DNA from: a virus
Direction: 5' to 3' (one strand)
DNA: 64,000 nt
Virus record (IMG/VR): IMGVR_UViG_3300020583_000224
Span: 32,001-96,000 of that record
Within the stretch, counting starts at the first letter, position 1. Each line of letters begins with the position of its first letter. A model generated the notes under the pieces. It did no database searches. It saw nothing but the letters and a program-made list of their open reading frames with translations, and had not been told where the DNA came from. This document shows, piece by piece, positions 11,706 to 56,160 of this stretch. Position numbers and translations under genes: made by a program.

Positions 11706-11707
11706 CC

Positions 11708-39682: not shown

Positions 39683-39921
39683 TGGACCACGAGTCATCCC
39701 CCCTTAGGGGGACCATGTGGTCCAGTGGTCCACCGCAGGTCAGAGGCTTGGATCTGGCAAGTGGTCCGCGAAAAGTGGACCACCCGTGATCGCAACTCTC
39801 TGACCTGGCCATATGGGGTGGTCCAGATCGCCGGTCCACCTGGTCCAAGCCTCTTTCAGTATGAGGGGACTGATTCGCGACGTGTGCTGACCTGCTGGAT
39901 CCCAATTGGCCCAGTGGACCA
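39683..39921. repeat. array of about 11 TGG(A/T)CCA-type motifs, candidate origin iterons
   Basis: Exact copies at 39683, 39718, 39726, 39776, 39819, 39841 and 39915; one-mismatch copies at 39709, 39762, 39832 and 39907; intergenic. Confidence 0.8.
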
Positions 39922-39946: not shown

Positions 39947-41299
39947 TCACTCGTTCCCCTCGAATCGCAGGGCGTCCCACTCGGCCTTGTGCTCCTCCAG
40001 CGCCCGCTGAATGCTGCCCTTTGCGGCCTGGAGGATCTCGGCGAGGTCGCGCTGCGAGATCCGCGCCCCGGCCTCGACGCACGTCGCCTTTATGCGCAGC
40101 CAGAGCAGGTCCCTCTCGCGCGTCACGGCGGTCCACGGCCATGCCCCACCCATTTGCAGGATCATCGGCCACTCGCGTTCGTCGCGCTGTCCGCGCCAGT
40201 GCTGCAGCTCGCCCTCGGGGGAGAGGTAGATCCCGAACTCGGGCCAGCGGAGCCACAGGGACGCCCCGTATGGGCGGGTAGGCCGCTTCGCGCCGCCGCT
40301 CGCGTGCGGCGAGTGCGCCTCGAGGATGAGCGCGAACCCGTACTCGGTGCGCAGGCGGTCAAAGAGGCTGGCGGCGTTGCGCGCGGCGGCCTCAGGGTTC
40401 TTCGGGTCCTCGCTGATCAGCTTGTAGAGCGGTCCGCCGATTACGATGTCCGGGTCCACGGCCTTGACAGTCGCCTCGAGAGTTGCCGCATCCTTAGAGT
40501 CGGCTAGGTCGAAGCCAGCCGGGTGGATGACGAGGTGAAGTGCAAGCTTGTCGCTGCCCGTCGCTGCCACGAGAGAACGGATCTTGCGCTTCACTTGGCG
40601 GTCGCTGTTTTCCACGTCAAGCAGCAGCACCCGCAGGGGGGTGATGTCGGGTCCGCCAAACGGGTGGATGCCTGCGGCAAGCTGCACGGCCATCTGTCGC
40701 AGCAGCGTCGACTTTCCCTTGCCTTCCTGGCCCGTGAGGATGACGCGGTCGCCGCGTTCAAGCAGGCCCGGCACCAGCCAGTCGTACGGCTCGTCTTCGC
40801 CAGCGAGGAACTCGTAGATTGAGGGTGCGGGAAGCCCTTTGTGGCGGCGTCCGCCGTCGGTCTCCCGCTGGAAGTCGGCGAGGAACAGCCGCTCGGCCTC
40901 GGGCAGATCCTCGGGTCGGGTCTCCCGGTAGAGCTGAGCCAGCTTCATCGCGCGGCGTTCGCCCTTGCGGAGCTTGTCGGTGTCGCGCACGCGCTCGGCA
41001 TAGGCCCCAGCGTTGGCGGCGAACGGCACTGCCTGAGTGAGGTCGTGCAGGTATGCGGGTCCGCCAATCTTCTGGAGTTCTCCGCAGCGACTCAATTCAC
41101 CCGCGACGGTGACCATGTCCACGGGCTGGCTTTCGCCGTAGAGGTCGAGGATCGCGTTGAAGATCTTCTCGTGGCGGGGGTGGTAGAACTGGTCGCCGTC
41201 TTCGAGGACGCAGATGACCTCCGCGATCGCGTCGCGGCTGAGCATCATGCCGCCGAGCGTCGCCTGCTCAGCCTCGATGTCCTGAGGCGGCTCGTTCAC
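39947..41299 (-). CDS. DnaB N-terminal domain + AAA_25/RepA-type helicase + C-terminal HTH
   Basis: PPQDIEAEQATLGG...FYHPRH N-domain; DWLVPGLLERGDRVILTGQEGKGKS; VLLLDVEN; EAH; PYGAS; C-terminal ISQRDLAEILQAAKGSIQRAL. Confidence 0.85.
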   Translation of the reverse strand: MNEPPQDIEAEQATLGGMMLSRDAIAEVICVLEDGDQFYHPRHEKIFNAILDLYGESQPVDMVTVAGELSRCGELQKIGGPAYLHDLTQAVPFAANAGAYAERVRDTDKLRKGERRAMKLAQLYRETRPEDLPEAERLFLADFQRETDGGRRHKGLPAPSIYEFLAGEDEPYDWLVPGLLERGDRVILTGQEGKGKSTLLRQMAVQLAAGIHPFGGPDITPLRVLLLDVENSDRQVKRKIRSLVAATGSDKLALHLVIHPAGFDLADSKDAATLEATVKAVDPDIVIGGPLYKLISEDPKNPEAAARNAASLFDRLRTEYGFALILEAHSPHASGGAKRPTRPYGASLWLRWPEFGIYLSPEGELQHWRGQRDEREWPMILQMGGAWPWTAVTRERDLLWLRIKATCVEAGARISQRDLAEILQAAKGSIQRALEEHKAEWDALRFEGNE

Positions 41300-41415: not shown

Positions 41416-42174
41416 GTGGCGCCACAGTTGATCGAGGAGGCGACCCGCCCAGTGGTACAGGACCCATCCCAGGTGAGCGCTCGGCAGATCGCCGCCGAAA
41501 TGAATGCGCGTATCGACGCAGGTGAACTTCGGCCCGGCGACACGCTGCCGACGGTGCGCGAGTTGATGGAGCAGTTCGGCGCGTCCACAAACACCGTTCA
41601 GCGCGCACTTCGCGAACTGAAGGACCGTGGGCTGATCAGCAAACTTGGACGCAACAACGTCGTTCGGCATCCGGTTCAGTTGGTCGAGCGATCGGCGGAC
41701 TACACGCGCCCGCTCGGCGAGGGCGAGCCGATCCCGCACAGGGACAAGCCTCGAATCACGGAGGTCGGCCCCACGGGCGCACCGGACTACGTTGCGGACC
41801 TCCTCGGCGTTGCGCCAGGCGACGTGGTGCTGGTCAGGCGTCGCACGATGATCCGCAACGAGGTCGAGCCCGTCGAGTTGGTCTCCTCGTTCTACCCGAT
41901 GGAGATTGCAGGCGGCACGGAACTCGCGAAGCGCGCGCTCGTGAAGGGCGGCTCGCCAACGGCGCTTGCCCGCCTGGGCTACTTGTCCGGACCGTCTACC
42001 GAGTGGGTGTTCGGCCGCCTCCCCACGCCGGGAGAAGCGGAGAGACTGAATCTCCCGGCCGGCGCTCCGGTACTCCGGATTCTTCGCCAGATTCGGACGG
42101 CCGAAGGACGCCCGCTCGAGGTGATCGAGATGGTGATGAGTGCCGAGCGGAACGTCTTGAGGTACGAGCTGTAG
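41416..42174 (+). CDS. GntR-family (HutC/UTRA) regulator, KorSA-like
   Basis: IDAGELRPGDTLPTVRELMEQFGASTNTVQRALREL winged HTH plus UTRA domain. Confidence 0.92.
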   Translation: MAPQLIEEATRPVVQDPSQVSARQIAAEMNARIDAGELRPGDTLPTVRELMEQFGASTNTVQRALRELKDRGLISKLGRNNVVRHPVQLVERSADYTRPLGEGEPIPHRDKPRITEVGPTGAPDYVADLLGVAPGDVVLVRRRTMIRNEVEPVELVSSFYPMEIAGGTELAKRALVKGGSPTALARLGYLSGPSTEWVFGRLPTPGEAERLNLPAGAPVLRILRQIRTAEGRPLEVIEMVMSAERNVLRYEL

Positions 42175-42200
42175 CGTCATCCCGCACCCTTCGATTAGAG

Positions 42201-42227
42201 GCCCCGGTCGTTCTGACCGGGGCTTTC
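42201..42227 (+). terminator. intrinsic terminator
   Basis: GCCCCGGTC-gttct-GACCGGGGC-TTT. Confidence 0.7.
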
Positions 42228-42256
42228 GCTGTCTCCAGAAGAATCTTCATCGCCAT

Positions 42257-42288
42257 TGTAGCGCTACAGAGATTGTAGCGCTATAGTC
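42257..42288. promoter_or_regulatory. tandem palindromic operators over the xis promoter
   Basis: TGTAGCGCTACA (42257-42268) and TGTAGCGCTATA (42274-42285) overlapping TATAGT; related GTAGCA-N7-TGCTAC at 41382-41400 upstream of the GntR gene. Confidence 0.75.
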
Positions 42289-42319
42289 GTCACCAGAGCC
42301 ACTAAGACAAGGAGGACCG

Positions 42320-42526
42320 ATGGCGGCGATCACACCGCGACCCGACCTCGGCGTGATGTTCGAGCCTGAGGCGGTAGCCGACGCGTTGCACGTCGGACGC
42401 GGCACGGTCTACCGCCTGATCCGCAGCGGCGAACTGAAGGCCAAGAAGATCGGCCGGCAGTACCGCATCCCCGAGGCGTCGCTGAACGAGTACCTCGGCC
42501 TCGAACAGCTAGAGCAGTCCGCATAA
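42320..42526 (+). CDS. excisionase-like HTH_17 protein
   Basis: AAGGAGG RBS; EAVADALHVGRGTVYRLIRSGELKAKKIGRQYRIPEASL. Confidence 0.9.
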   Translation: MAAITPRPDLGVMFEPEAVADALHVGRGTVYRLIRSGELKAKKIGRQYRIPEASLNEYLGLEQLEQSA

Positions 42527-42582
42527 CCATCCCCGCGGGGTCCGGCGGCTTCCCTCCCCGGCAACCGGACCCCGCACCACAC

Positions 42583-42661
42583 GCCCTCCGTTGGTCGGAG
42601 AGTTCGCTGCCGTGCCGCACCCGGCAGCGAACGGGCACCGGTTCAACTCCGGTGGAGGGCA
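42583..42661 (+). ncRNA. tRNA-like structure lacking canonical D and anticodon arms
   Basis: 7-bp acceptor GCCCTCC/GGAGGGC plus A; T-arm ACCGG-TTCAACT-CCGGT; 11-bp internal stem GTTCGCTGCCG/CGGCAGCGAAC. Confidence 0.6.
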
Positions 42662-42733
42662 CGTAAAAGCCCGGCTGACGGGTCGAGTCCGACAGCCGGG
42701 CAAGCCAAACCCTCCAGCGAAGAGGATCCAGAC

Positions 42734-44830
42734 ATGGACCAGGTTACAGCGACCAGCCGACAGGCCGCGTACGACTACGACCACGCGTTCCTCATGATCG
42801 CCGCAGTCGACCAGGCCGCCGCGTCCGACGACTTCCACGCCGGGATCATCGCCGGATACAACCTGCTCCGGCACCCGTCCGGGGCCGCGAAGTTCACCGC
42901 CGCCGTCGAGGCGCAGCGCCAGCGCATCCAGGACGACGCCGAGCTCGGCGACGACACCGACGGGAGCGCACTCTGATGACGCTGCGGAACGGCAACCACT
43001 GCTACGGCTACCGGTGCACCTGCGGCGCCACCGGCTCCGGCTACCCGTCCGAGTCCGCCGCCGCGCGGGCCGAGCGGCACCACGCCGAACGCAACCCGAT
43101 CGTGCACAAGCCGAAGGCGGACGCGCGATGAACCTGACGGACTACGTCCTGGACCGCACCCTGTGCACCCGCTGCGGCAACGAAGGCACGCTCAAGCACG
43201 AAGGCAAGTACGAGGGCTGCCCCGACTGCCCGCGAGGCCAGGAAGTCAACCGGCAACTCGCCGAGATCAAGACCGAGCAGGACCGCACCAACGCCGACCA
43301 CGACGAGTCGGACGAGCCGTACGGCTTCTGCTTCCTGCACGGCGAGGAATGGGGCAAAGGCGGCGGCTGCGAAGGCTGCTCCGACGAGAACCGCGACACG
43401 CGCCGCGCCGCCTACGCAGAAAGGCGGGCCGCGTCATGAACGCCGACCAGCAGCACGCCAAGAACGCGCCCCTGACGGCGCTCGCCCACTGCGGCATCGA
43501 CACCGACACCGCCGACCAGTACGTTGCGGACGCGATCCCGAGTGTCCACTCCGAGACCGTCGCCCGCTGGATCACCCTCGCCTACCAGGCTGGGCAAGGC
43601 GCCCTCGCCGCCGACGTCCGCGCCCTGAAACTCCGCGTCACGGCGATCGAGGCGGCCGGCGCCGACCACGCCCCGCCGATGGCCGTCGACTTCGACGCGC
43701 TACGCCCGATCGCCGAACGGAGGACCAACTCGTGAACCGCCTCACCGCCTGGATCAAGACCGTCATCGTCGGTCACCGCAAGCACCTCACCGACGAGCAG
43801 CTCGCGGGAGACGACTGCGCCCTGTGCGGTCGCCGGTTCCTCACCTACCGCACCTCGTACGGCTGGATCGGGCTGCCGTTCCTCGGCCGCCGCGCCTGGG
43901 CGTGCGAAACCGCGTGCACCATCACCGCAGTCGAAGACATCGAGGCACTGTTCCGTGCGGCGATCCCGGCCCAGCAGCGCGTGGACTTCTACCACCTCGG
44001 CATCGACGACATCCAACTCGTCACCGCCCCGGACGGCAGCGACATGGTCGACGAGGACTACGTGGCGGGGATCGCCGCACAGCCCCACGTCGAGGTCGAG
44101 ATCGTCCACGCGGGCGGGATCCTGACCACGCGCCCACTGCCCGAGCAGTACGCCGGATACATCGCCGTACAGGCGCAGAAGCTCGGGTTCACGGCCATGA
44201 TCAGCGAGGGGGCAGTGCGATGAGCGCGGCAACCAAGACCCGGCACCTCGTGGCCGTCCCCGACGCGCCCGCCCCGACCGCGCCCAGCGACGTGGAAGTC
44301 GCCCGGTTCTACGTCGAGCAGCAGGCGACGCTCACCGAGCAGCACCAGGCCGCGCATGTTGCGCTCGCAGTACCCGACGTGGAGCAGGATCTGCTCGACG
44401 CTGTAGCGGACACCGTGCGTGCGCTCGAGCAGCCCGGCGCCAACCGTCACGCGCTCCTGGCCGATCTCGCCCGGCGCATGTACCGGCACGGGCACGTCGA
44501 CGGGGCAGCAGACCGGAAGCCCGGCGAACGGCACCTGAAGCTCGCCGACAGCGTGCTCGCCGAAGTCGTCGTCCTCGAGCAGCGCGACCGGCAGGCGTTG
44601 CGCGCCACCGAGCACGCGATCAAGCGCGGGACGGTGAAGGCGTGAGCAGCCGGACCGCCACCCAGACCGCCGACCACGCGCAGCTCAGCCGCGCCTACTA
44701 CGAGCACTGCCAGAACTGCCCCTGCTGCCGCCGCGGCCAGACCTGGTGCGAGACCGGCACCGCGATCCTCGCCGCCATAGCCACCACCCGCGCCGACAGC
44801 GACCTGCCCGGCTACGGAGAAGGAGCCTGA
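42734..44830 (+). other. rightward small genes (42734-42976, 42976-43131, 43128-43439, 43436-43735, 43732-44223, 44220-44645, 44642-44830)
   Basis: Translational coupling; AICE/plasmid-type small Cys-rich ORFs. Confidence 0.65.
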
Positions 44831-44831
44831 C

Positions 44832-45065
44832 ATGCGCCGACTACTCCTCGCCGCGACAGCCGCGCTGCTCCTTGCTACGGCCGGCTGCAACCTGAGCCTT
44901 GACCCGACCAACGTCACCGGCACCGTCACCTCCCACGATGTCAGGTACAACCCCGCAACCAAGGTCAACAACTACTACCTCACCATCGCGGGCACCGAGT
45001 ACCGCGTCAACTACGACACCTACAACCACTGCCGCGACGGCCAGCAGTACCCCAAGTGCAAGTGA
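44832..45065 (+). CDS. small lipoprotein
   Basis: MRR, hydrophobic stretch, lipobox LATAG-C; AAGGAG RBS. Confidence 0.75.
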   Translation: MRRLLLAATAALLLATAGCNLSLDPTNVTGTVTSHDVRYNPATKVNNYYLTIAGTEYRVNYDTYNHCRDGQQYPKCK

Positions 45066-45090
45066 CCCGCATCAAGAAGGAGAACTGACC

Positions 45091-47814
45091 ATGGCCCTGC
45101 GCATCAGCTGGTCCAACCGAGGCGGACTCCGCCTCACCGAACGCAAGCGGATCGGACGCCTCAGCGTCGGTGAGTCGATCCCACTCACGAAGTCGAAGAA
45201 CGGCCGCAAGCGACGCACCCGCCGCTGGATCTCGTTCCGGCTCTAACCCCAACCCGCCAGCCGAAACCAATGAAGGGGCAGTGCATGCCGTCCGAAGCCG
45301 ATTTCAACACTGCCAGCAGGCGCCTCGACCGCCTCGAGGCCGCGGGCGCGCCACCCGCGGACATCGCGGCCGCCCGCGCCGAATACGACCGCATCGACGA
45401 GCAACTCACCATCCAGCAACTCAACGCGCCCCGAACCAGGGCCGGGCAGTCCTGACCGGACGGCCCCGCTACCCCGAAAGGAACACCATGACCGACGCGT
45501 CCACCACCCCGCTCGACATCGTCGCCAGCCCCGACGACGACGAGTTCTACGAGCCCAGCGACGAACTCGTCAAGCACCTCGCCGACCACGTCACCGAGGT
45601 CTACGGCGCCAGCGCCCGGCTCCCCGAAGTCGGGATGCTCATGGATACCTGGCCCGAGACCCGGAACCTCGACGACGGGCAGCAGGAGGCCCTCGCCGAA
45701 GCGCTCGTCGACGAACTCGCCGCCCGCGACAACGGAAGGCGCCGGTAACCGCCATGCGCAACCCGTTCCGCACCGACCCCGACGTCCAAGCCGCCCGAGG
45801 CGACCTCGCCGAGTACATGGACACCGCCAAGCGCTTCGGCAACTACGAGGAGACCCCCGAGTTCGCCGCCGCCAACCGCGCCGTCATCGACGCCGAGAAC
45901 CGCGCTAAGGCGCGCCGCCGCTGACCGGACGGGCCAGGTCGAGCAGCGACCACGCGGACGCTGCTCACCTAGTCCGGCCGGACCGGACCGCAGACCAAGC
46001 CGACCCCACCGAAGGAGAACCAGCCATGGCCAAGAAGACCCAGGAAGAGCTGATCGTCGCCTACTCCGGCGCCGCAGCCCGAACCGGACAGCCCGCCTAC
46101 AACCCCAACTCCACCGAGCAGCAGGTCCAGCAGGCCACAGACAACATGCGCGCCGCCGAGCGGAACCTCGAGCGGCTGCGCAACGGGCACATCGAGTAGC
46201 AGCGGTCGGCGGACCACGATCGCCGGCGGCCCTGAGCTCTCTCCAGGACCGCCGGTCCGCGCGGCCAACCGGCCCGAACCCAACCACTACGCCGAAGGAG
46301 GCGCCCAATGCTCGCGATCACCGTTCTACTACTCGCCGTCGGGGCACTGCTCGCCGCCCTCGGCACCATCGGGTTCGCCCTCGTCTGGCAGGCCCCGTCG
46401 CACGACGACCTCGCCATGGCGCGCAAGACCGCCACGATCGGGCGATGGCTTACCGTCCCCGGACTGTGCCTGTTCGCCGGACACTACGCGGCGGCCGGCC
46501 CGGGCCTGTACGCGCTCATGCTCGTCGTCGCCTTGACCGTAGCCAGCTTCATCACCAAGTCCACGACCCGGCCCGTCGCCGCGACAGGAGCAGCCCGGTG
46601 AACCCCCGCGAGCAAGCCCAAGCCATCACCGACCTCGCAGGCATCGAGGGCGGCGGCAAAAACACCGAAGCGTTCACCCGGTTCTTCCGCAGGGGATCGC
46701 GGACCGGCTGGAACAGCCTCACCCAGGACGACTTCGCCATGGTCGAGGACGCGTTCGCCGACGCCGCGGGCGGGCCCCGTCGCAAGCGCAAGCACCCGCT
46801 CGTCTGGAAGATCGGCTTCTGGTGGCACTGGCACGTCACCTCGCCGATCATCTACCCGCTCATCGAGGCGCCCTTTACCGCCTGCCGCAAGATCTACTGG
46901 CACGCCTGGAGGAAACGCCACGGCGGCGAAGTCATGGTCCCCGACTGGCGCGACGACGGCGAGGCGTACATCGCATTCATGCCCTGGGTCGAGGCCAACG
47001 CCCAGCGCCGCCAACTCGTCGCGAACCTGCCGCTGCGCCACCGCATAGCCGACCGTCTCAATCGCCTGCACGTCGCCTGGGGCTGGTGCTGCCCCGACTG
47101 CGGCATTGACTTCGCCGAGCCCGAGCACCTCGAGCCGCGCGACGTCCGGGCGTTCGCGGCCCTCGACGCCCACGTCGCAGAAGCCCACGGAGGTGCGGCA
47201 CCCGAAGAAGCCGAGGCCGCCCAACTGTTCTGGATCTAGCGCGCCTAGACCTCAAGCCGACCAACCACCACGAAGGAGACCACGACCATGGCATGGCGAA
47301 CGAAGAACGGGCAGACCAGCGAGCCCAACTACGACCGGCGCGGCACCGACGTGCGCCACGGCGTCGAGATCAAGGACTACAGCGAGCCCTGGCGCCAGGC
47401 CGAGCGCATCAACAAGCGCGAAGCCATGACCCCCGAAGAGCGGCAGGCCGAGAGCCGCGAGATCTCGCGCAGGCTGTTCTCCCGCGACGACTGACCACAC
47501 GAACTCCGCCTACCCAAGAGCACGTCACCACCGAGAGGACCGCGGCCATGCATGAGCCGCACGCACCGTTCTGCACCAACCATGCCGAAGGTATCTGCCG
47601 GGCCGATGACCTCACGTCCGGCAAGTGGGAGATCGGGCTGTCCGAGGTGGACGGCGAGGCCACCGTGTACGTGTGGCATCCCGAGATCATCCCCGACGAG
47701 ACGAGCGGCACATTGCGCCCCGCCGAAGCTATCGAACTCGGACGCGCCCTCGTCGCGCAGGGCACTCGGGGCTTACTCCAAGGCGGCGCCGCCGCCTCAG
47801 CGGATGCCGTGTAG
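45091..47814 (+). other. cassette of small genes (45091-45246, 45285-45455, 45488-45748, 45754-45924, 46026-46199, 46308-46601, 46598-47239, 47288-47494, 47548-47814)
   Basis: Most have their own (GA)AGGAG-type RBS; several are separated by hairpin-forming spacers. Confidence 0.65.
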
Positions 47815-48705
47815 GGCCTTCGTGATCCACCGCACCACCGCCCTGCTTGCCGCGCCCAGGCCGAAGACGGCAAGCAGACCATCGGACCGGGTGTACTGCG
47901 CGAGATGGACGGCGGTCGTGATGCAAATGCCCAACAGGACGAAGATGTCGACTTCCAGCACCGCCACTGCTATCCGGAGTCCATCCACCTTCGCCCTGCG
48001 CCGGCGCCACCACGGCAGGCCGACAACTTCGACGGGCGGGGCATCTGGGGCAACCCAAACTTCGAGGTTCGGCTCAGGGCAACCGTCCGGGTCGTGAAGG
48101 CTGAGTGTGAAGGACCCTGGGGCAAGCCCGTAGTCCTCCGTCAGGATGCTGCCCGCCACGTCGTAGATCTCACTCTTAGATCCCGGCTTGACCAGTGGTC
48201 CGCACGTCCAATAGCCGAGCTCGGTGATCTGCGGAAACCATATCCGTACGCAATCCGGATCGAGCCCCTCCTGATTCGACGAGACGACTGCCGCATAATG
48301 CGGCGCGGCATTCCCGCGAGCCCAGCCCCCGCCCCGATGCTGCATGGCGGACGCGAGCAGCCCCAGCCTCCACGGCCGCGGTTCGTGATGCCCCGGACTG
48401 CTGCTCGGCTCCCAACCCAACCGGTAGTCGTAGTCCCGACTCTTGTTGTAGATCGGGTTCTCGTACTTGAACGCGCAGTACTCCTCGATCGCCGCGCCAA
48501 GCCGGGACGTGTGCCAAACCGCCGTGCGCCAGTGGACCTCATTCCACCAGTCCTTGTCGCGCGCATGCTCGCGCCAGCGCTTGTCCGTGTCGTGGGCGAT
48601 ACCTACGTAGAGCAGACGCCCGGTGCGATCGTAGAACCGGTAGACGGCCGTCTTGCGCGCCGGTCCACAGTGCAGCGATGAACAGATCCCCACTACTCCC
48701 ACCAC
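47797..48705 (-). CDS. GIY-YIG nuclease with central HicB-like segment and C-terminal TM helices (start uncertain)
   Basis: TAVYRFYDRTGRLLYVGI...KRWREH..K.WW...E..A...ENP.YN; hydrophobic C-terminus. Confidence 0.75.
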   Translation of the reverse strand: MVGVVGICSSLHCGPARKTAVYRFYDRTGRLLYVGIAHDTDKRWREHARDKDWWNEVHWRTAVWHTSRLGAAIEEYCAFKYENPIYNKSRDYDYRLGWEPSSSPGHHEPRPWRLGLLASAMQHRGGGWARGNAAPHYAAVVSSNQEGLDPDCVRIWFPQITELGYWTCGPLVKPGSKSEIYDVAGSILTEDYGLAPGSFTLSLHDPDGCPEPNLEVWVAPDAPPVEVVGLPWWRRRRAKVDGLRIAVAVLEVDIFVLLGICITTAVHLAQYTRSDGLLAVFGLGAASRAVVRWITKALHGIR

Positions 48706-48732
48706 CTGGTGGCACCCGGCGCGATTTGAAGC

Positions 48733-48993
48733 TCAGCCGCGAGTTTCGCGCCCCTCTGCGATCCGCTGTGCGGCTGACCGCTTGATCCCGAGCAGCCGGG
48801 CGACGGTTGCATGCGAGTCGCCGCGCTCCCGCATTTCGAGCACGCCTGACCTGCGCACTTCCGCGGCGGCGATGACGTCGTCTTGCAGCTCACGCAGGAT
48901 GTCCTGCGCCTTGAGGGCGCGCTCGGCCGGATCCTCGATGGCGCGTACCGCCTCGAGCCTGTCTCTGATCTCACGCATCTCTTCATCCGGCAC
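48733..48993 (-). CDS. small HTH repressor divergent from the transfer genes
   Basis: LEMRERGDSHATVARLLGIKRSAAQRI; TACACT box just upstream (leaderless); GTACAG direct repeats in the divergent spacer. Confidence 0.7.
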   Translation of the reverse strand: MPDEEMREIRDRLEAVRAIEDPAERALKAQDILRELQDDVIAAAEVRRSGVLEMRERGDSHATVARLLGIKRSAAQRIAEGRETRG

Positions 48994-49080
48994 GAGTCGT
49001 AGTGTAAGCCCATGAGCAAAGTGTACAGGGAGGGGGTACAGTAGAGATCGACGTATTCGAACACGAAGGAGCGAACCGCC

Positions 49081-50127
49081 ATGGACGGCGAGACCCCCAC
49101 CACCCCGGCGCCCCCCACGCCGCTCGGGGGATGGTGGATCGCGGCCGTCGCCGTGATCGGCACGATGGCCGCGCTCATCGCGATCGGCGGCATGATCCTG
49201 TCTTTCCGCGCCGTCTCCCAAGAGATGACCCCTGCGTTCGGCACCCAGTGGGCATGGCTCGTACCCGTCGTCATCGACCTGTCCGTGTTCGTGTTCTCCG
49301 GCGTCGACCTCGTCCTGAACCGGCTCCGCATGAACCACCCGCTCGCCCGGTTCACCGTGTACGGTGCGACGTTCGGAACCGTCTGGCTGAACTACTCCGC
49401 CGGCGGTTCGGTCGCTGGCCGAACCGCCCACATCCTCATGCCGAGCATCTGGGTCGTGTTCGTCGAACTCATGCGGCACGTGGTTCGGCGGCTAACCGGC
49501 CTGGCCGACGGATCCCTGCGCGAACCCGTCCCGACGGTTCGATGGATCCTCGCCCCGTGGCGAACCGTGAACCTCTGGCGGCGCATGGTCCTGTGGGGCA
49601 CGAACTCCTACCCGAAGGCCCTCGCGCAGGAGAAGGGGCGCCTGGCCGCTATCGCGGTTCTGCGAACCGAACACGGGCCGTTCTGGCGCTGGCGCGTCGC
49701 GCCACTGGTTCGCCTGCAGCTCAGTCTTGGCGAACCCGTTCAGGCTCCCGAACTTGCTGCGGCCGAACCTGCCGAACCGGACCGCGAGGCCGAACCGGAG
49801 ACCCCGAACCTTCCCGCAGTTCCGAACCGAACCACCGCCGCCGGTCGCGCCGAACGTTCTGCGCCGCGCCGAACCAGCCCGCGCCCGAACGGTTCCGGGA
49901 GCGTCTCCCCGCTCATGTCGCGACCCGAACGCGTCGAGATCATCCGGCAGTGGATCGACCAGGCGGGCGGCCTCGAGGCCGTGCCGCTCAGCCGAATCAT
50001 GACCGAATTCGGGTGCGCCAAGTCCACCGCCTCCGGCCTGCGCGCCGAGGCAGATCCCAGCCCTGCAACCCAAAGCGCGACGACGCCTAACGAAGACGAC
50101 GAAGCTGATCGAGAGGACGCCGCCTGA
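49081..50127 (+). CDS. DUF2637-like (Spd-type) membrane protein with C-terminal HTH
   Basis: LSF.AV...AWLVPVVID..., TVWLN...HILMP...ELMRH, RWILAPWRT.NLWRRMVLW; C-terminal LSRIMTEFGCAKSTAS. Confidence 0.8.
   Translation: MDGETPTTPAPPTPLGGWWIAAVAVIGTMAALIAIGGMILSFRAVSQEMTPAFGTQWAWLVPVVIDLSVFVFSGVDLVLNRLRMNHPLARFTVYGATFGTVWLNYSAGGSVAGRTAHILMPSIWVVFVELMRHVVRRLTGLADGSLREPVPTVRWILAPWRTVNLWRRMVLWGTNSYPKALAQEKGRLAAIAVLRTEHGPFWRWRVAPLVRLQLSLGEPVQAPELAAAEPAEPDREAEPETPNLPAVPNRTTAAGRAERSAPRRTSPRPNGSGSVSPLMSRPERVEIIRQWIDQAGGLEAVPLSRIMTEFGCAKSTASGLRAEADPSPATQSATTPNEDDEADREDAA
49370..49932. repeat. about 20 (C)CGAAC/GTTCG repeats inside the DUF2637-like gene, candidate clt
   Basis: Dense from 49731 to 49932 (49731, 49748, 49763, 49772, 49790, 49804, 49822 twice, 49850, 49869, 49885, 49925), in more than one reading frame. 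Confidence 0.75.
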
Positions 50128-52343
50128 TGGCACGACACGACACGACACGCGGCTACCTCGAGGCTCAGCCGCTCCAAATTCCCGATAGCGCCCAGCAATC
50201 CACCCTTCCCGTCGCGTGGCATGGCGCGCCTCCGGCCGTCACGCAACATGGAGAACTCGCAGCTCAGGCGCCGAATCAGGCTGCTCCGCAGTCGTACTAC
50301 TCGGTCAGTCCGGGCCAGATCCTCCCACACGCGCAGGCCCACGACCTCCCCTGGCACATGGCCGGACTGCTCGACCACGAACTGCCCCGCCCGAAGCCCG
50401 AATGGGTCAAACTCCTCAACGACTACCACGTGCCCGGGGTCGCCGGGACGCTCGTGTTCACGGCGTTCGGGTGGATGGCGCACAAGGAGCCGATGCACCC
50501 GTGGATGGCCGGGCTGTTCATCGGCGTGGGCGTCACCGGGCTCGTCGGCGCCTGGTGGGCGCACCACGAGCACGGCCAGGACGCGGACCCGCACTTCACC
50601 AAGGGCCTGGCGGGTCTTGGCGTTGCCGCCATCTGCGGCGGTGCCGCCGTTGGCGCCGGGCCCACGGGGATCTCGTTCATGCTGGCGTTCGCGCTGGCGG
50701 TCGGCGCCGTCGTCGGCGTTCACCAGTACCGCGAGCACAAGCGCCACGTGAAGGCGGTGACGGCAGTCGAGTTCCACGCTGCCGTCAACCAGGGGAAGGT
50801 TCACGTGGTCGGCCCCGGGCCGGCGGCGGCAACGTCGAACATTGTGGACGGTCGGGTGCTATCCCAGGAGGAGGCGCTGCTGCACCGGGCGTTCGCGGAC
50901 ATGGGCATCGAGCCGATCACGCTGCGCGGGTTCGAGCGCCTCGACAAGGACGCGTTCAACGTGATCGTCGGACTGCCGGGTACTTCCACGAACGACCCGG
51001 AGACGGTGATCGGCAAGCGGGAGGTGCTCAAGTCGAACCTGCGCGCCCGGCAGATCGCGGTGGAGGCGAGCTCCGAGCACGGCCACGAGATCAAGCTCAT
51101 GGTGCGCTACGGCGCGACCAACCCGCTGCTCGAGACCATCGCCTGGAAGGGCCCCAACACCGACGACGTCGCCGAGCCGATCAGGACCAGCGTCGATTTG
51201 CACGGCGACGAAGTCATGGTGCGATTCGCCAACCGGCACACCCTCTACGCGGGTAAGACCCGGCGCGGAAAGTCGGCCGGCATCGCCTCGGCCATTTGCT
51301 CAATCGGCGCCACGAAGAATGCTCAGCTCTGGCTAATGGATTTGAAGCCGGGTCAGGTCTCGCTCGGCCCGTTCGCCGCGATGGCGGCCCAGTCGGTCGA
51401 GGGCAGGAACCAGCAGGAGTGCGTGGAAAGGGCGTCCCTGATGATTCTCGCCGCCGTCGCGGCGATGGAGGAGAACGGGCAAATCCTCAAGGACGAGCGG
51501 GAGTCGACCGGGAAGCCGGTGTACGAGTGGGATGTCAACAGGCACGGCGCGGCGATCGTCCTGGTCATCGACGAGCTTGCCTACCTGCTGCGGCTGGACC
51601 CGGAGATCTACGAGGGCTGGGTTACGATCATGCAGGTCGGGGCGGGCCTCGGCGTGTGGGTGATCGGCGCTACGCAGTCTCCGTCGGCGAAGGCCCTCGG
51701 CGGCACCACTGACGGCTCCAGTCAGTTCGGCAACGTGTTCTGCTACCAGTGCAAGGGCGCGACCCAGGCCGGGATCATCCTGGGCCAGGGGTCGTGGAGT
51801 GAGGGTTGGAAGCCGAACGAGCGGAACCTGCCGCTGCAGGGCATGCACCTGCTGCGCACCCCGGAGCACATCCACCCCGTGGTCATGCGGAACGAGTTCG
51901 TCGAGCCGGGCGACGCGATGGACATTGCCGACCGGTACGCCGACTCCATTCCGGCGCTGCATCCGCGGACGGCGGCGGCGGTCGATCGCGTACTGAACAT
52001 GGGGCTGCCGACGAAGAGCGGGCCGGGCCCTGGTCGCGGCGGGAAGCCGTCCGGGCCCGTCGACAGCGAGATCGTGTACACGCGCCCGTATCTCGTGCCG
52101 GAGTATCCCGACGGCGACGTGGTCGAGGCGCACCACCGCGCGGCGTGGGAGGCCTTCAAGGAGATGGGTTCGGCAACGATCGACGAGCTCAAGGCACTCC
52201 GACTCGACCAGCACCGTTCACGCGAGTCGTGCAAGACCGCCTTGCAGGTGTTCGTCAGGCACGGCGGCGCGACCTCAGAGATGGACGGCCGTACCGAGCG
52301 ATTCCACTGCCTTGTCGGTTCCGAGCGCCGCAAGGAGGCGTGA
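50127..52343 (+). CDS. traB: TraB-like FtsK/SpoIIIE conjugative DNA translocase
   Basis: N-terminal TM helices; Walker A GKTRRGKS; DLK; Walker B VLVIDE; ATQ; C-terminal wHTH-like region; TGATG-coupled to the DUF2637-like gene. Confidence 0.85.
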   Translation: MARHDTTRGYLEAQPLQIPDSAQQSTLPVAWHGAPPAVTQHGELAAQAPNQAAPQSYYSVSPGQILPHAQAHDLPWHMAGLLDHELPRPKPEWVKLLNDYHVPGVAGTLVFTAFGWMAHKEPMHPWMAGLFIGVGVTGLVGAWWAHHEHGQDADPHFTKGLAGLGVAAICGGAAVGAGPTGISFMLAFALAVGAVVGVHQYREHKRHVKAVTAVEFHAAVNQGKVHVVGPGPAAATSNIVDGRVLSQEEALLHRAFADMGIEPITLRGFERLDKDAFNVIVGLPGTSTNDPETVIGKREVLKSNLRARQIAVEASSEHGHEIKLMVRYGATNPLLETIAWKGPNTDDVAEPIRTSVDLHGDEVMVRFANRHTLYAGKTRRGKSAGIASAICSIGATKNAQLWLMDLKPGQVSLGPFAAMAAQSVEGRNQQECVERASLMILAAVAAMEENGQILKDERESTGKPVYEWDVNRHGAAIVLVIDELAYLLRLDPEIYEGWVTIMQVGAGLGVWVIGATQSPSAKALGGTTDGSSQFGNVFCYQCKGATQAGIILGQGSWSEGWKPNERNLPLQGMHLLRTPEHIHPVVMRNEFVEPGDAMDIADRYADSIPALHPRTAAAVDRVLNMGLPTKSGPGPGRGGKPSGPVDSEIVYTRPYLVPEYPDGDVVEAHHRAAWEAFKEMGSATIDELKALRLDQHRSRESCKTALQVFVRHGGATSEMDGRTERFHCLVGSERRKEA

Positions 52344-53812
52344 TGGCGCGCCGTAAGCGTTCGACCCTCGACCGGATGGCTTTTCACATGAAGCCGAACC
52401 GGGTCCTGGCGCGCTATCTGAGCGGCGGCAGGCACCAGACCTTCAAGTCGATCGCGAAGTCGCCGTTCAAGGAGCGCACGGTCCACACCGCGAAGTCGGG
52501 TCGGCACGCGTATCAGCAGCAGATGGCCCGGGAGCGGAAGGCGCGGGCGGCCACCGCCGCAAGGCAGCGCAAGCAGGCAGTAGCGGACCAGCGGGGCGCT
52601 CGCGCCCAGATGCGCCAGCAGCAGCCGAAGCCGCCGCGCACTTCCCGGCAGCCGATCGCGGTCGACCCGCGCACCGGCAAGCCGATCACCTGGGCGCAGG
52701 CGCAGAAAGCCGCCCGGGACGCGAACGCGCGCGCCGACCGGCTCGCGGCCGGGCACGACGGCGACGCCCCGGCACGCCGCCCGCGCCGGCCGAAGCCCGA
52801 ACCGGCCACGCCGCTCGCCCGCGCGATTGCCGAGGTGCAGAAGAACAAGAAGAAGCCGGCCAAACCCGCACCGAAGAAGCAGCCCCGGAAGAAGCCGACC
52901 TCAGCCAAGCGCGCGACGGCGAAGCGGCGTCCCGCGAAGAAGGGGAAGGGTGTCGCGGCGACGGTCGCGGACCTGATCCCCGGCCAGGCGATCCTCGCCG
53001 CGACGATGCCCGGTCGCGACACGCCCGGCGCCGGGCCGAAGCCCGTGAACCCTCGGACCCGCGCCTCCCGCACCGCACGCAGGGGCATCTACGGGGAGGT
53101 GCTCAAGCGCACCTGCGAATGCGGCGGCACCGGCCGCATCCCGATCTATAACAATCAGGGCGACCCGGCGGGCTCCACCTCGTGCCCCGAGCACGGCCGC
53201 GCCGGGGACGCCCGTGGCGCGAAGCGTTGGACGGCGAAGCGGGCGATCCGCGACTCGGGACTGCCGGGGCTCGGCGCGTGGCTCGAGAAGCGGCGCACGA
53301 AGAAGCGCGGCAACTCCGACGCGCGGCAGCACAGGGCATGGGAACTGGCTCAGGGCGAACTCAGAATGGCCGGGCCAACCCTCGAATGCGAATGGTGCGA
53401 GGACGGCCTGGTGAACCGGCAGTTGACCGACCGGCTGCGCAAACAGCACATCATGAAGGCCCGCGCCGACGCTGCGGCCCTGATCCGTGCCGCGCAAGCC
53501 CACAACGCCGAGGTCGCCGACACCGGTGAGGGCAGGCAGGTGAAGGTCCCGAAGATGCCGACGGAGAAGCAGTTGCAGACTGATGCGCGCCGCACCTTCC
53601 CGTACGATCACTGCTCCGTCTGCAAGGGCCTGGGCCGTGTCGCGACCGGTGTACGGCTGCTGCAGGACGGGTCCCAGCCGGTGGCCGAGTGGCGTGCTGC
53701 GGCTGGGTTGAAGGACGGTCACCGGTCGACGGCGCGGCAGCGGTCGACGGGACGGCGCCCGACGGAGAATGCGGCGCGGGTGGAGCGGCGCCGGATCGTG
53801 CCTCGACTGTAG
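52343..53812 (+). CDS. very basic protein with DnaJ-like CxxCxGxG zinc motifs
   Basis: AAGGAGG RBS, TGATG coupling; K/R-rich; CECGGTG, CEWCEDG, CSVCKGLG. Confidence 0.75.
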   Translation: MARRKRSTLDRMAFHMKPNRVLARYLSGGRHQTFKSIAKSPFKERTVHTAKSGRHAYQQQMARERKARAATAARQRKQAVADQRGARAQMRQQQPKPPRTSRQPIAVDPRTGKPITWAQAQKAARDANARADRLAAGHDGDAPARRPRRPKPEPATPLARAIAEVQKNKKKPAKPAPKKQPRKKPTSAKRATAKRRPAKKGKGVAATVADLIPGQAILAATMPGRDTPGAGPKPVNPRTRASRTARRGIYGEVLKRTCECGGTGRIPIYNNQGDPAGSTSCPEHGRAGDARGAKRWTAKRAIRDSGLPGLGAWLEKRRTKKRGNSDARQHRAWELAQGELRMAGPTLECEWCEDGLVNRQLTDRLRKQHIMKARADAAALIRAAQAHNAEVADTGEGRQVKVPKMPTEKQLQTDARRTFPYDHCSVCKGLGRVATGVRLLQDGSQPVAEWRAAAGLKDGHRSTARQRSTGRRPTENAARVERRRIVPRL

Positions 53813-53839
53813 GAAAATATTTAGCATTGCTAAGCATCT

Positions 53840-53873
53840 GGGTCGGGGTGGCGCTGTGCCACCCCGACCCTTT
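53840..53873 (+). terminator. intrinsic terminator ending the transfer operon
   Basis: 13-bp stem GGGTCGGGGTGGC/GCCACCCCGACCC plus TTT; palindrome TTAGCA-T-TGCTAA at 53821-53833 just upstream. Confidence 0.8.
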
Positions 53874-53946
53874 CCGTGTGCTGCGGCGTGGGGTGACGTG
53901 CCGCCAGGGCTTGGCGAAGTCTCTAGAAGAATCTTGAGCTACACCC

Positions 53947-53978
53947 TTGACGATACCACCGGGGGGTGGCATCATAGT
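53947..53978 (+). promoter_or_regulatory. promoter with palindromic spacer
   Basis: TTGACG (53947-53952), then CATCAT/CATAGT; spacer contains CCACC-gggg-GGTGG. Confidence 0.55.
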
Positions 53979-54014
53979 ACTTAGAGGGAGACGCCGACCG
54001 GAAGGAAACCAGAA

Positions 54015-54927
54015 ATGACCGCCACCGCCACCAAGATCCAGCCGGAGATCGAAGACGGAGAGTGCGTCAACTGCGGAGTCCCGGAAGACGAGATCTGCGA
54101 GCGGTGTGGATGCGACTGCGGCCACGGCCCTGACGGGCTGAAGCTCTTCGGGGGCCCCGATAGCGAGTACTGCCCGCACGGCTGCAAGACCGCCTACGGC
54201 GACGGCGAGGAGACCTGGGCTGCGGACGAAGCCCAGCGGCGGGAGCTGGAAGGATGGCAGGCCTGATGGGCGGGCAGGACGCCGGGGCGCGGGGAGTACC
54301 CGGCCCCACCCTGGGGTCGATCTTGGGAGATGCCGACGCCGCCCTCACGCACCTCGCCGCCACCCACACCCCGCTCGCCCGCGCCCAAGAACTCAAGCGC
54401 TGGACCGAAGCCGTCCAAGCCCTCAGCAAGCGCATCGGCGACGACACCACCGAAGCCGTCTGGCAAGCCGCGCAATCGCAGCCCTCCGCCGACGTGGCCG
54501 CCGCACTCGGCGTCTCCAAGTCCGCCGTCGACAACCGGGTCAACGCGTACCGCAAAGCGCACCCGGACGCGCCCCGAAAGGACCCCCGACCGTGAACGCT
54601 CCCAGCCTCGCTGCCGACCACGCCTACTACTGCGCCCCGGCCGAACGCCACGACACGTACGACACGTGGGCCGAGTTCGCCGACCTGGAAGCAGGCGCCG
54701 ACCACGACCGGAACCTGCTGTTCCGCTGGGACTGGATCCCGGGCGACGGGTACGGCGCGGCCAGCCTCGAACTGTTCTTCGCCCTACAGGGCAAGGGCGA
54801 GCTGCGGTCCGTCACGGTCGCGGTGCTCGCCGAGGACGAGACGGCGGTCCGCGCGTACCTGCAGCCGCGGCTCGAGCACCTGGCGGGCCTGTGGGCGCCG
54901 CTCTCGCTGTCGGCCGCCGGGGCATGA
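54015..54927 (+). other. three genes (54015-54266 Cys-rich; 54254-54595 HTH; 54592-54927 hypothetical)
   Basis: SADVAAALGVSKSAVDNRV HTH in the middle gene; couplings. Confidence 0.65.
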
Positions 54928-54978
54928 CAGGGTGACCCGATAGCTACGCTAAGTATTTCCCCCACCTAAACTGACCCC

Positions 54979-55539
54979 ATGGACGGCGAGTCGACGCGCG
55001 CCAGAATCCGCGAACTCGTAGGCGACGGCGCGGCCACCCTCCAGCAGATCGCCGACAGCCTCGGGATCCGCATGCAGACTGTCGCCGGGCACATCGCGCG
55101 CATGCCGGATGCGGCCGGGATCCGCGCGGCTATGGACCGCAACAAGCCGGCGCCGCGCACCCTGACTGCGTTCGGCGAGGCCAAGACCGTGACCGCCTGG
55201 TCGAGGGACCCGCGCAGCCGCATATCACGGAACACGCTGCGCACGCGGCTCGCCGATGGCTGGAGTCTCGAGGACGCGCTCACCACCGGACCCAGGAGGC
55301 GCGGGCAGACGGTGACGCTCACCGTCGAGGAGGCTGCCGCGTTGAAGGCCGCGGCAGGCCGGGTGCGTGCACTGCCGCAGGTGCACAGGAACACGACCGC
55401 CGACGCGCCGGAACGGGCTGCGACCAGAGAGCTGCGCGAGCTGATCCGGCAGGCAGCCGAGCGGGCGTCCATCGGCGAGATCGCGCGGGCGGCCGGGCTT
55501 AGCTACCAGCAGGCGTGGCGGCACCTTCGGCGCGCATAA
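54979..55539 (+). CDS. multi-HTH DNA-binding protein
   Basis: ATLQQIADSLGIRMQTV and SIGEIARAAGLSY HTHs flank an HNH-associated LTAFGEAKTV..W...TLRTRL..GWSLEDALT module. Confidence 0.7.
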   Translation: MDGESTRARIRELVGDGAATLQQIADSLGIRMQTVAGHIARMPDAAGIRAAMDRNKPAPRTLTAFGEAKTVTAWSRDPRSRISRNTLRTRLADGWSLEDALTTGPRRRGQTVTLTVEEAAALKAAAGRVRALPQVHRNTTADAPERAATRELRELIRQAAERASIGEIARAAGLSYQQAWRHLRRA

Positions 55540-55716
55540 GGTCCGTAGGGCCGCACTTCGACACCGAAGGAAACTGACTCCAAGGTTAGGAAACAGGAAA
55601 CCCCTTCCGCCCGCTGTCGGCGGGCGAGAGAATCAGAACAAGAAGACGGGTCGCCACCGACGCTACGGCGACGACCCAGCCCCCTCCGTACCAGACACGA
55701 AGGAGACACGCACATC

Positions 55717-56160
55717 ATGACCGACCCCAAGCCCCGGGCCAAGCCCCGGGTTTTGATCACCAGCTACGGCGTGCTGCACGGCGTCCCGCCCGCACCCCGG
55801 CATCACGCGATGCCCGTCGAGGTCGACCTCGCCGACGCGCTGCGCAACCCGCACGACGACCCCGGCATGCGGTACCTGACCGGGCTCGACCCCAAGGTCG
55901 CCGCGCACGTCATGACGACCCCCGGCGCTACTGACTACCGCGACCAGGCCGTCCACGAGATCCAGGTGCGCATCAGCCTCGGCGTGGACCCTGTCGAAGT
56001 GTTCGTCTACTGCCGCGGCGGACGCCACCGTTCCGTCGCGATGGCCGAAGCGATCGGTTCCGCGCTATCGGCCCGGGCCGTCCGCGTGACCATCGAGCAC
56101 CGCGACATCGACAAGCCCGTCGTCCAAGCCATCCCCGCAACCAGCGCCAAGGAGGCGTGA
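55717..56160 (+). CDS. RapZ C-terminal-domain-like protein
   Basis: ITSYG..HG.P...LRNPHDDP.MRYLTGLD...CRGGRHRSVAMAE...IEHRDI. Confidence 0.85.
   Translation: MTDPKPRAKPRVLITSYGVLHGVPPAPRHHAMPVEVDLADALRNPHDDPGMRYLTGLDPKVAAHVMTTPGATDYRDQAVHEIQVRISLGVDPVEVFVYCRGGRHRSVAMAEAIGSALSARAVRVTIEHRDIDKPVVQAIPATSAKEA

Follow-up and report, generated by a model that had tools for sequence, protein, structure and literature searches.

The transfer and spread system of the Streptomyces plasmids pSVH1, pIJ101, pWTY27 and pJV1 is made up of TraB, its DNA site clt, SpdB2 and the repressor TraR (KorA). TraB has been described as a translocase with an N-terminal membrane part and, at its C-terminus, a winged helix-turn-helix domain whose helix 3 reads the 8-bp repeats of clt (PMC3583192, PMC4447253), and the published clt sites are arrays of 7-9 bp repeats beside tra (PMC3583192). 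[quoted passage not shown] Streptomyces plasmid-phages that conjugate and form particles have been reported as pZL12/phiZL12 (Zhong et al. 2010) and pFP4 (Chen et al. 2012), phiC31 and VWB are the phages credited with SpdB2 homologues (Thoma et al.), and several Streptomyces phage papers mention FtsK-like genes without assigning them a function. Here we analyzed a pump operon and its surroundings in the virus record IMGVR_UViG_3300020583_000224, a tailed-phage genome of 122.7 kb with a CheckV completeness of 100%. The window is the 64,000-nucleotide stretch at bases 32001-96000 of this single 122,712-bp contig, and coordinates that are not marked as genome positions refer to the window.

The operon encodes a DUF2637 membrane protein, an FtsK/SpoIIIE-type pump and a strongly basic zinc-type protein, and together with a GntR-type regulator it gives the phage a gene set of the Streptomyces plasmid transfer type (Table 1). 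We suggest, with a probability of roughly one in two, that this is a phage-resident, plasmid-type system for the translocation of double-stranded DNA (dsDNA), which serves the virion-free spread of the phage's own DNA through hyphae. The block that runs from the GntR gene to the RapZ C-terminal-domain gene is a long-resident part of a large temperate actinophage and not an inserted AICE. A first-pass annotation made from the letters alone had named a GntR regulator, an excisionase, a DUF2637-like gene, a TraB-like FtsK/SpoIIIE protein with intact Walker motifs, a coupled basic zinc protein and a RapZ C-terminal domain between phage replication and tail genes, and had described the whole as a Streptomyces-type conjugation module inside a phage. 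All of these genes were recovered by family matches or direct inspection, as were the flanking replication initiator, DnaB helicase and tail fibre, and a plasmid-type transfer gene set within a tailed-phage genome is supported. Of the further proposal that the locus is a phage-AICE hybrid, spread by two routes is reasonable on this gene set, and the discrete AICE is not supported.

Table 1. Features of the window discussed in the text (window positions)
Feature	Position	Strand	Basis or context
Replication initiator	108-1241		Domain/family match
Full DnaB helicase	1636-2979		439.5 bits on TIGR00665
TGGWCCA array, 7 exact sites plus degenerate copies in both orientations	39683..39921		Intergenic, between a 361-aa gene of unknown function and the second DnaB-like helicase
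Second, divergent DnaB-type helicase (DnaB N-terminal domain + AAA_25)	39947..41299	-	PF00772 104.8 bits, PF13481 88.7 bits
GntR/HutC-type regulator (GntR helix-turn-helix + UTRA), Kor/TraR-like	41416..42174	+	PF00392 63.1 bits, PF07702 52.6 bits; phrog_10724 E 2.5e-38
Terminator-like hairpin closing the GntR gene, 9-bp G+C stem, 5-nt loop	42201..42223	+	Read from sequence
Two tandem 12-bp palindromes, TGTAGCGCTACA then TGTAGCGCTATA (candidate operators)	42257..42285	.	After the GntR hairpin, in the promoter region of the following operon
Excisionase-family HTH_17 protein, 68 aa, Xis-like	42320..42526	+	PF12728 56.8 bits; TIGR01764 51.1 bits (cut-off 28.8); phrog_66
About 17 small orphan genes between regulator and pump operon	42734..47814	+	Gene calls from third-position G+C (GC3)
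GIY-YIG homing-endonuclease-like gene	47797..48693	-	PF01541 24.4 bits; phrog_16880 and phrog_3312 "endonuclease"
Small helix-turn-helix gene	48733-48993	-	Adjoins the endonuclease gene
DUF2637 / SpdB2-like membrane protein, 348 aa, first gene of pump operon	49081..50127	+	PF10935 66.5 bits (cut-off 22.8)
Embedded CCGAACC array, clt-like	49405..49875	.	Within the DUF2637 gene, 260-720 nt upstream of the pump start
FtsK/SpoIIIE / TraB-like dsDNA translocase (pump), 738 aa	50127..52343	+	Walker motifs, profile, fold
Basic 7-Cys zinc-type protein, 490 aa, isoelectric point (pI) 11.6, CxC / CxxC / CxxCxGxG motifs	52340..53812	+	Start overlaps the pump stop codon
Terminator-like hairpin closing the pump operon, 13-bp stem, 5-nt loop	53840..53870	+	Read from sequence
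Stand-alone RapZ C-terminal-domain protein, next transcription unit	55717..56160	+	PF22740 77.9 bits; phrog_18111
Pectin-lyase-type tail fibre	From 61635		Right end of window

Like the TraB system, the phage has a GntR-type repressor, an SpdB2-type membrane protein, translationally coupled genes, an FtsK-like pump with an N-terminal membrane part and a C-terminal winged helix, and an array of 7-8 nt repeats beside the pump gene; in one plasmid with a TraB-type gene, the array occupies the 3' half of the DUF2637 gene, which is also its place in the phage. The differences are that the carrier here is a tailed phage of 122.7 kb, that its pump falls into a separate sequence clade, and that in the position of the small Spd proteins the phage has a basic 7-Cys protein, distinct from the RRQRL zinc protein of plasmids. 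By analogy with TraB and clt, binding of the pump to the array is predicted for the phage.

The pump is a member of the FtsK/SpoIIIE superfamily. Its Walker A (GKTRRGKS) and Walker B (VLVIDE) motifs are invariant over 19 aligned homologues, and the alpha/beta motor fold is present. The 738-aa reading frame was preferred to a shorter alternative because homologues of 732-747 aa align from their first residues. As a single sequence the protein scored 23.2 bits on PF01580, just below the cut-off of 24, a family for which precomputed matches exist in 16 of 20 family members; the family profile matched the FtsK motor 2IUU (E = 1.8e-17) and the coupling protein TcpA of pCW3 (E = 1.5e-13). The AlphaFold2 model, with a mean predicted local distance difference test (pLDDT) of 63, has a disordered N-terminus, a helical hydrophobic region at about 102-221 (hydrophobic segments at 160-200), an alpha/beta motor at about 247-625, a linker and a C-terminal domain, and it matched FtsK motor-dsDNA structures in Foldseek with an E value of 8e-14 and a target template modelling score (TM) of 0.64. 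The last 100 residues, modelled separately with 10 sequences, form a winged helix at about 660-730 with a pLDDT of 80, the nearest folds being MecI/BlaI, ArsR and the centromere binder AspA (TM about 0.5, root mean square deviation 2.1-2.5 A). A hexameric-type, membrane-anchored dsDNA pump is predicted. The FtsK gamma domain (PF09397) had no match in the pump, and no 8-mer resembling the FtsK-orienting polar sequences (KOPS) was both over-represented and skewed genome-wide (highest z 3.4).

The membrane protein has two strong hydrophobic segments, at residues 14-46 and 57-80, and the stop codon of its gene overlaps the ATG of the pump gene (TGATG). A complex prediction of its residues 1-235 with pump residues 60-250 gave a score of 0.00 against a mark of 0.32. 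It shares 40% identity (E = 2e-36) with the DUF2637 protein of an 18.4 kb circular AICE-like plasmid, and its relatives occur in 340 plasmid records (319 from Streptomyces) versus two phages, VWB and Gilgamesh. On a 79 kb linear plasmid, the DUF2637 gene follows directly after a TraB-type gene, the product of which scores 308.8 bits on NF041214. In the literature searched, DUF2637 appears in two papers, neither of which deals with DNA transfer. We read the family as that of SpdB2 because VWB gp24 is a DUF2637 protein (123 bits) and VWB has been cited for its SpdB2 homologue, an equation that we infer by way of this single phage. Like the temperate Streptomyces phages phiC31 and VWB, the phage described here has a DUF2637 / SpdB2-like gene, with an embedded array as in VWB gp24. 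In the present phage, the gene is coupled to a phage pump and a basic zinc protein in a conserved operon.

In 10 of the 11 loci examined, namely the window and related loci described below, the protein after the pump has a pI of 11.5-11.8, an Arg+Lys content of 20-24% and exactly 7 Cys; these basic proteins fall into two sequence classes that BLAST does not link. The plasmid RRQRL zinc-protein family NF041638 had no match in 7 phage basic proteins, whereas two plasmid controls scored 136-150 bits, and a look-up in the Atlas returned no usable match.

The 3' half of the membrane-protein gene carries the repeat array. CCGAACC occurs there in 7 copies at 49763-49875, in all three codon phases; one more copy in direct orientation is found at 49419, and two are inverted, at 49405 and 49482. 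Arrays were sought as 7-mer clusters in each locus and judged against 500 within-gene permutations of synonymous codons. None of the 500 permutations of the window gene reached 7 CCGAACC copies, and 12 other genes of the window, used as negative controls, showed no repeat excess. The GGTTCGGC cluster was considered as a plain coding repeat and rejected as such by the codon-phase and permutation tests. In the window and in nine of ten relatives (related loci carry L numbers below), the strongest 7-mer cluster of the locus falls in the 3' half of the upstream open reading frame (ORF) or at its junction with the pump gene. The repeated word differs by lineage, being CCGAACC in the window, GTGCCGAC in L011, L012, L013 and L016, CGCCGAC in L010 and L015, and GGCGGCAG in L008 and L009. 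The copies stand in two or three codon phases, both orientations occur in eight of ten loci (the window among them), and in L013 one and the same 8-mer is read as Val-Pro-Thr or as Gly-Ala-Asp. The observed count was reached by 0/500 permutations for eight loci and by 1/500 for two. The arrays are thus motifs of the DNA level, overlaid on a coding sequence. In a plasmid with a TraB-type gene, used as a positive control, the DUF2637 gene has 14 copies of GGGGACC in its 3' half (0/500 permutations).

Since published clt sites are arrays of short repeats beside tra, the embedded arrays are good clt candidates, and by the same analogy the winged helix of the pump is predicted to bind them. The common location in phages and in a classical TraB plasmid makes the 3' half of this gene a candidate general site of clt. 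L010 and L015 share an array word and differ in helix 3 of the winged helix. The new element in these observations is the embedding of repeat arrays in DUF2637 or upstream-ORF genes beside a pump; our literature search, which did not reach subscription papers and supplements, found no account of the operon in phages or of arrays within DUF2637 genes. An array of another kind lies at 14539-14788 of L020, the 18.4 kb circular element (NZ_CP107792.1), where 8 copies of GACAGAAC stand between a YfjI-family gene and the helix-turn-helix and integrase genes; this intergenic array is probably an origin or an att-proximal binding array.

A word-indexed search returned 20 close relatives of the pump with 39-88% identity, mostly metagenomic, and a HMMER scan of 1.84 billion representatives gave 136 matches at E <= 1e-30; among the 150 matches listed, 27 scored at least 250 bits over their full length, and the names of ten mid-range representatives were uninformative. 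Pump-bearing loci, at 27-53% identity, were found on 11 IMG/VR viral contigs and on one contig, from a metagenome-assembled genome, among 185,579 species genomes. In annotated collections, the only pump matches were Gilgamesh gp10 and five Streptomyces "plasmids" of 129.6-132.6 kb. All five encode a Gilgamesh-type large terminase (76-92% identity) and are therefore phage-plasmids. More broadly, at least seven Streptomyces "plasmids" of 125-133 kb, counting L006, encode such a terminase at 76-95% identity, and five of them carry a pump relative; Gilgamesh-like phages seem to persist as linear plasmid prophages in sequenced isolates. Every relative found in this comparison was phage-borne. On the phage-family profile, Gilgamesh gp10 scored 321 bits and one plasmid-borne protein 365 bits, an AICE Tra scored 24.9 bits, which is not significant, and a TraB-type query against 50,697 phage records gave zero matches. 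By sequence, the clade consists of FtsK-like pumps found so far in phages only and is not that of plasmid TraB.

Gilgamesh and the Gilgamesh-like linear phage-plasmids are large Streptomyces phages (125-133 kb) with a full-length member of the extended pump family at 27-29% identity (gp10, the "FtsK-like DNA translocase" of Gilgamesh), and Gilgamesh has a DUF2637 gene too. However, that gene, gp79, lies about 68 kb from gp10, there is no array excess in gp9/gp10, and the virion genes are unrelated to those of the present phage. No function of gp10 has been published in the literature searched.

The operon itself is conserved, its three genes for membrane protein, pump and basic zinc protein being found again in at least 10 further genomes of uncultivated phages. 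In nine of ten loci with upstream DNA, the pump gene is overlapped or directly adjoined by an upstream ORF of 273-396 aa, the exception being L010 with a gap of 68 nt. Four of 12 loci have a GntR homologue upstream, and its coupling to the operon in L009 and L017 suggests that a four-gene cassette is ancestral and has been split in the present phage by about 6.9 kb of orphan genes and a homing-endonuclease gene. Among nine viral records examined, six reach a completeness of 90% or more, with lengths of 60-95 kb, and terminal repeats are present in four. Homologues of the terminase of the present phage are limited to four of ten records searched, so that the cassette occurs together with different packaging modules. 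On the right-hand side of the block, the genes at 56538-57703, 59655-59921 and 61090-61599 are syntenic with the pump in L008, L010 and L011.

We propose that the repressor would hold the operon off in the manner of kil-kor systems. On expression, the pump would form in the membrane where cross-walls lie or hyphae touch. Its winged helix would dock on the 7-8 nt repeats in the 3' half of the membrane-protein gene as the equivalent of clt, and the motor would drive DNA of the phage or prophage, in double-stranded form, into the adjoining compartment or mycelium, aided by the SpdB2-like channel protein and the basic, putatively DNA-binding protein. The outcome would be virion-independent spread or the recolonization of phage-free compartments. 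The genes present, their domains and coupling, their conservation across phages and the DNA-level character of the arrays are observations; the DNA binding of the winged helix, the DNA that is pumped and the direction and timing of pumping are inferred. In its widest form, the proposal is that a lineage of large temperate actinophages, Gilgamesh-like linear phage-plasmids included, keeps a phage-specific pump operon with its docking array inside the channel gene, that naked dsDNA travels through cross-walls and possibly between mycelia, and that dual transmission is an evolved, conserved strategy rather than an occasional accident of plasmid-phages; we put this generalization forward tentatively, as less than an even bet.

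If the proposal is true, a second route for spreading through a colony and lysogenizing it, one that needs no virions, would be open to the temperate phages of bacteria that are filamentous and multigenomic. This would alter how the spread of phages, immunity to them, pock-like zones and gene flow are interpreted in soil populations of Streptomyces, and many actinophage genes annotated as "FtsK-like DNA translocase" would gain a testable function. The advance would be one of breadth and mechanism and not of concept, as conjugating plasmid-phages (pZL12, pFP4) and phage SpdB2 homologues have already been published.

Several observations weigh against a TraB-like role. The C-terminal domain of the pump is a generic winged helix with no fold match at E <= 0.001, and FtsK gamma is not among its listed matches. 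On the TraB equivalog NF041214, its best NCBIfam match, the pump scored 26.6 bits (E = 2e-6) against a cut-off of 800, and conversely a canonical TraB-type protein had no match on the phage-family profile. The failure on NF041214 says little about function, because the model is narrow and a genuine AICE Tra fails equally (25.5 bits); Gilgamesh gp10 scored 54.4 bits and the TraB-type protein of the linear plasmid 308.8 bits in the same calibration. The upstream ORFs of the relatives are weakly DUF2637-like, with Pfam matches in two of seven, one of them above the cut-off, and a probability of 44% in hhalign. The array of the window is modest, since 19/500 permutations reach the observed count at the 8-mer level, and L018 has no array at all. 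Furthermore, VWB gp24 carries GCACCCG 15 times in its 3' part (L022, 6652-7066; 5 copies as a hexamer tandem and 10 dispersed in two codon phases), and no FtsK-like pump was found in VWB by the queries used; Gilgamesh gp9/gp10 and the pZL12 genes show no array excess, and the DUF2637 gene of the 18.4 kb AICE has no array. The arrays thus follow DUF2637 genes and not strictly the pump, and therefore another reader of the arrays, or another cause for them, is possible.

The regulator and the plasmid-phage pZL12 add points on the same side. The candidate operators precede a different operon and the GntR gene lies 6.9 kb from the pump operon, so that GntR control of the pump operon in the present phage is a candidate idea. 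pZL12 resembles the present phage in combining virion genes with an FtsK-like tra locus, and its record shows a GntR gene facing an operon whose products include an FtsK-like protein and a membrane protein. However, its Tra and membrane proteins have no detectable similarity to those of the phage, and just the GntR proteins are related (36% identity to pZL12-80). pZL12 has also been described as a circular plasmid prophage with ParA and ParB (PMC4487206), whereas the present phage has neither and carries an integrase-like gene.

The best surviving alternative to virion-free spread is that the operon is a segregation or stability device within one mycelium, which clears or distributes DNA across cross-walls and sporulation septa, as FtsK does, so that every compartment and spore inherits the element. 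The motor is structurally closest to chromosomal FtsK, which also provides the next sequence relatives beyond the phage clade (about 95 bits), and members of the extended pump family are carried by Gilgamesh-like phages maintained as linear plasmid prophages with sizes of about 125-133 kb. A profile search with PF02195 and PF13614 found no ParA or ParB in the genome, while the controls for both profiles did score. Spreading has itself been viewed as a stability function, and spdB2 is reported to stabilize the linear plasmid SLP2 (PMC4170104). However, the SpdB2-like partner, the kil-kor-type repressor and the local array are hallmarks of transfer and spread that chromosomal FtsK lacks, and as an integrase-like gene is present, an integrated prophage would segregate with the chromosome. 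We consider this explanation rather unlikely; it overlaps with the preferred one, because intramycelial spreading would be both.

It could also be proposed that the locus serves exclusion, defence or host takeover, with a membrane ATPase and a pore partner that bar or expel the DNA of competitors or alter host segregation and development. PHROGs places phage FtsK/SpoIIIE-like proteins in the category "moron, auxiliary metabolic gene and host takeover" (phrog_1358, E = 5.6e-20), and Streptomyces phage papers list FtsK-like genes beside WhiB-like and Lsr2-like regulators of host development. PADLOC returned a weak match of the pump to the defence component mad8 (27.1 bits). However, that match is limited to the P-loop region and an unrelated helicase receives the same one, and PADLOC found no other defence component among the 10 proteins scanned. 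Exclusion also leaves the winged helix with its cis array, and the homology of the membrane partner to plasmid spread proteins, unexplained. We regard this reading as quite improbable.

AICEs such as pSAM2, SLP1 and pMEA300 share with the phage a GntR regulator, an excisionase-family helix-turn-helix protein, DUF2637 and an FtsK-domain Tra, and a single NUDIX gene is present in the phage genome, 18 kb to the left of the block. A textbook layout is seen in the circular 18.4 kb NZ_CP107792.1, with GntR, NUDIX, DUF2637, FtsK, Prim-Pol, helix-turn-helix and Int genes. The pump supplies the FtsK/SpoIIIE-domain Tra, by profile and fold. As for Rep, the Prim-Pol profile PF09250 had no match in the whole phage genome, while its control was positive in three genomes; the RepAM profile PF12307 was likewise without a match, but its control gave no signal either. 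Unlike in AICEs, the module has neither an integrase nor an att site next to it, bounding repeats were not found, the 122.7 kb element carries virion genes, and the pump belongs to another clade. The first-pass annotation had seen no integrase, which holds for the window; the genome does encode a divergent tyrosine-type integrase of 476 aa at genome positions 10524-11954, about 62 kb from the block (phrog_1, E = 2e-20). This integrase-like protein has an Atlas feature score of 0.98 and a structural TM of 0.62-0.79 to integrase clusters, with no match to Pfam PF00589 and no PDB sequence match; neither PF00589 nor PF07508 (serine recombinase) matched anywhere in the genome.

The last alternative is a discrete AICE or plasmid fragment that was recently inserted, or a phage-AICE chimera of the assembly. 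For the GntR and DUF2637 proteins, plasmid relatives far outnumber phage relatives (272 and 340 plasmid records versus 2 distinct phages each), and the GIY-YIG gene shows that the region has taken insertions. However, the stretch of 36-60 kb is flanked by low-identity chance pairs and by no convincing att-like direct repeats, the genome has no Prim-Pol and no integrase near the block, and the G+C content of 0.67-0.70 over the block is like that of the rest of the window (0.65-0.71 throughout, with no step at the block). The operon is kept in phages at 27-53% identity, and the right-hand genes are syntenic in three relatives. A second assembly of the probable source run, which is not an independent sample, yielded one 107.6 kb contig over both borders with 0 differences, and short pieces of the block recur, identical or nearly so, in two other soil samples, none of these pieces bridging a border. 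The insertion or chimera can thus be set aside as highly improbable, and with it falls the idea of an integrase-less AICE domesticated by a phage, given the absence of att repeats and Prim-Pol, the unbroken G+C content and a pump that is not of the plasmid or AICE type. Assembly "joints" listed for other soil samples were rejected as spurious, all but one having sides of 20-31 nt and the remaining one of 53 nt.

At the regulator end, the relatives of the GntR protein occur in 272 plasmid records (238 from Streptomyces) versus two distinct phages, one of which is pZL12. The sites that had been claimed as its operators are two tandem palindromes. TGTAGCGCTACA and TGTAGCGCTATA are the only two matches in the window, a count of two or more being reached in 28 of 100 shuffles, so the number is at chance level; they lie ahead of another operon, and by their position and tandem arrangement they are candidate GntR operators. 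A 16-nt motif, TCTCYAGAAGAATCTT, stands at 42232-42247 and at 53920-53935, just upstream of the promoter regions of the operons that start at 42320 and 54015, with no further copy in the genome at up to 2 mismatches. It was considered as an att site and rejected, as its position upstream of two promoters points to a regulatory motif.

The hairpins at the ends of the GntR gene and the pump operon divide the block into at least four transcription units: the GntR gene alone, the Xis-like gene with about 17 orphan genes, the pump operon, and the unit with the RapZ C-terminal-domain gene. A consensus scan for promoters and terminators was at chance level (1 promoter versus 0.8 expected, 9 terminators versus 8.3 expected). 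The Xis-like protein may be either a recombination directionality factor or a regulator. The Xis and RapZ C-terminal-domain genes, which had been counted as members of the module, are present as claimed but not demonstrably part of it; they belong to separate transcription units and are not syntenic with the module in relatives, except for a RapZ C-terminal-domain homologue near the pump in one of 12 related loci (L010). No family was found for the orphan genes scanned, 5 against Pfam and 8 against PHROGs. The GIY-YIG gene is probably an insertion; with its helix-turn-helix neighbour (47797-48993, minus strand), it interrupts a run of genes that is otherwise rightward, just ahead of the pump operon. 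The first gene after the pump operon encodes an acidic protein of 83 aa (54015-54266, pI 4.2) with 8 cysteines in CxxC-type pairs and no family match. Farther right, the supposed "late regulator" at 56538-57443 matches just a PHROG "DNA binding protein" family, with Cys pairs, and that label is not retained.

To the left of the GntR gene, the NCBIfam matches of the divergent helicase are confined to its DnaB N-terminal part, and its gene points away from the GntR gene, being transcribed leftward from a switch point at about 41.3 kb. The phage thus has two DnaB-type helicases. The TGGWCCA array beside the divergent one and the CCGAACC array are the only clusters of at least 6 copies of a 7-mer within 300 nt in the window. 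The TGGWCCA array could represent an iteron-bearing origin or a cluster of operators that serve the HutC-type GntR protein nearby, and its membership in the module is uncertain.

About 211 genes were called over the contig from GC3. The virion genes outside the window include a large terminase, a portal/MuF-type fusion, a minor tail protein and a tail spike, found in the flanking sequence together with the distant integrase-like gene. The best match of the portal among sequenced phages is that of Arthrobacter phage Sonali, with 44.5% identity over 43% of the length, and megablast of the block against phages and plasmids gave zero matches. As the portal match is partial and the block has no megablast match, the phage, which is of soil metagenome origin, is a kind of large actinophage new to the sequenced collections. 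An ORF on the opposite strand (genome 99251-99982) lies directly upstream of a terminase fragment (genome 100216-101517). The last 126 nt of the contig (genome 122587-122712) are a copy of positions 17-142, the 5' end of the tail-spike gene; this terminal repeat (genome 1-142 / 122587-122712) is consistent either with a self-closing assembly or with a second spike gene of the same N-terminus at the contig end.

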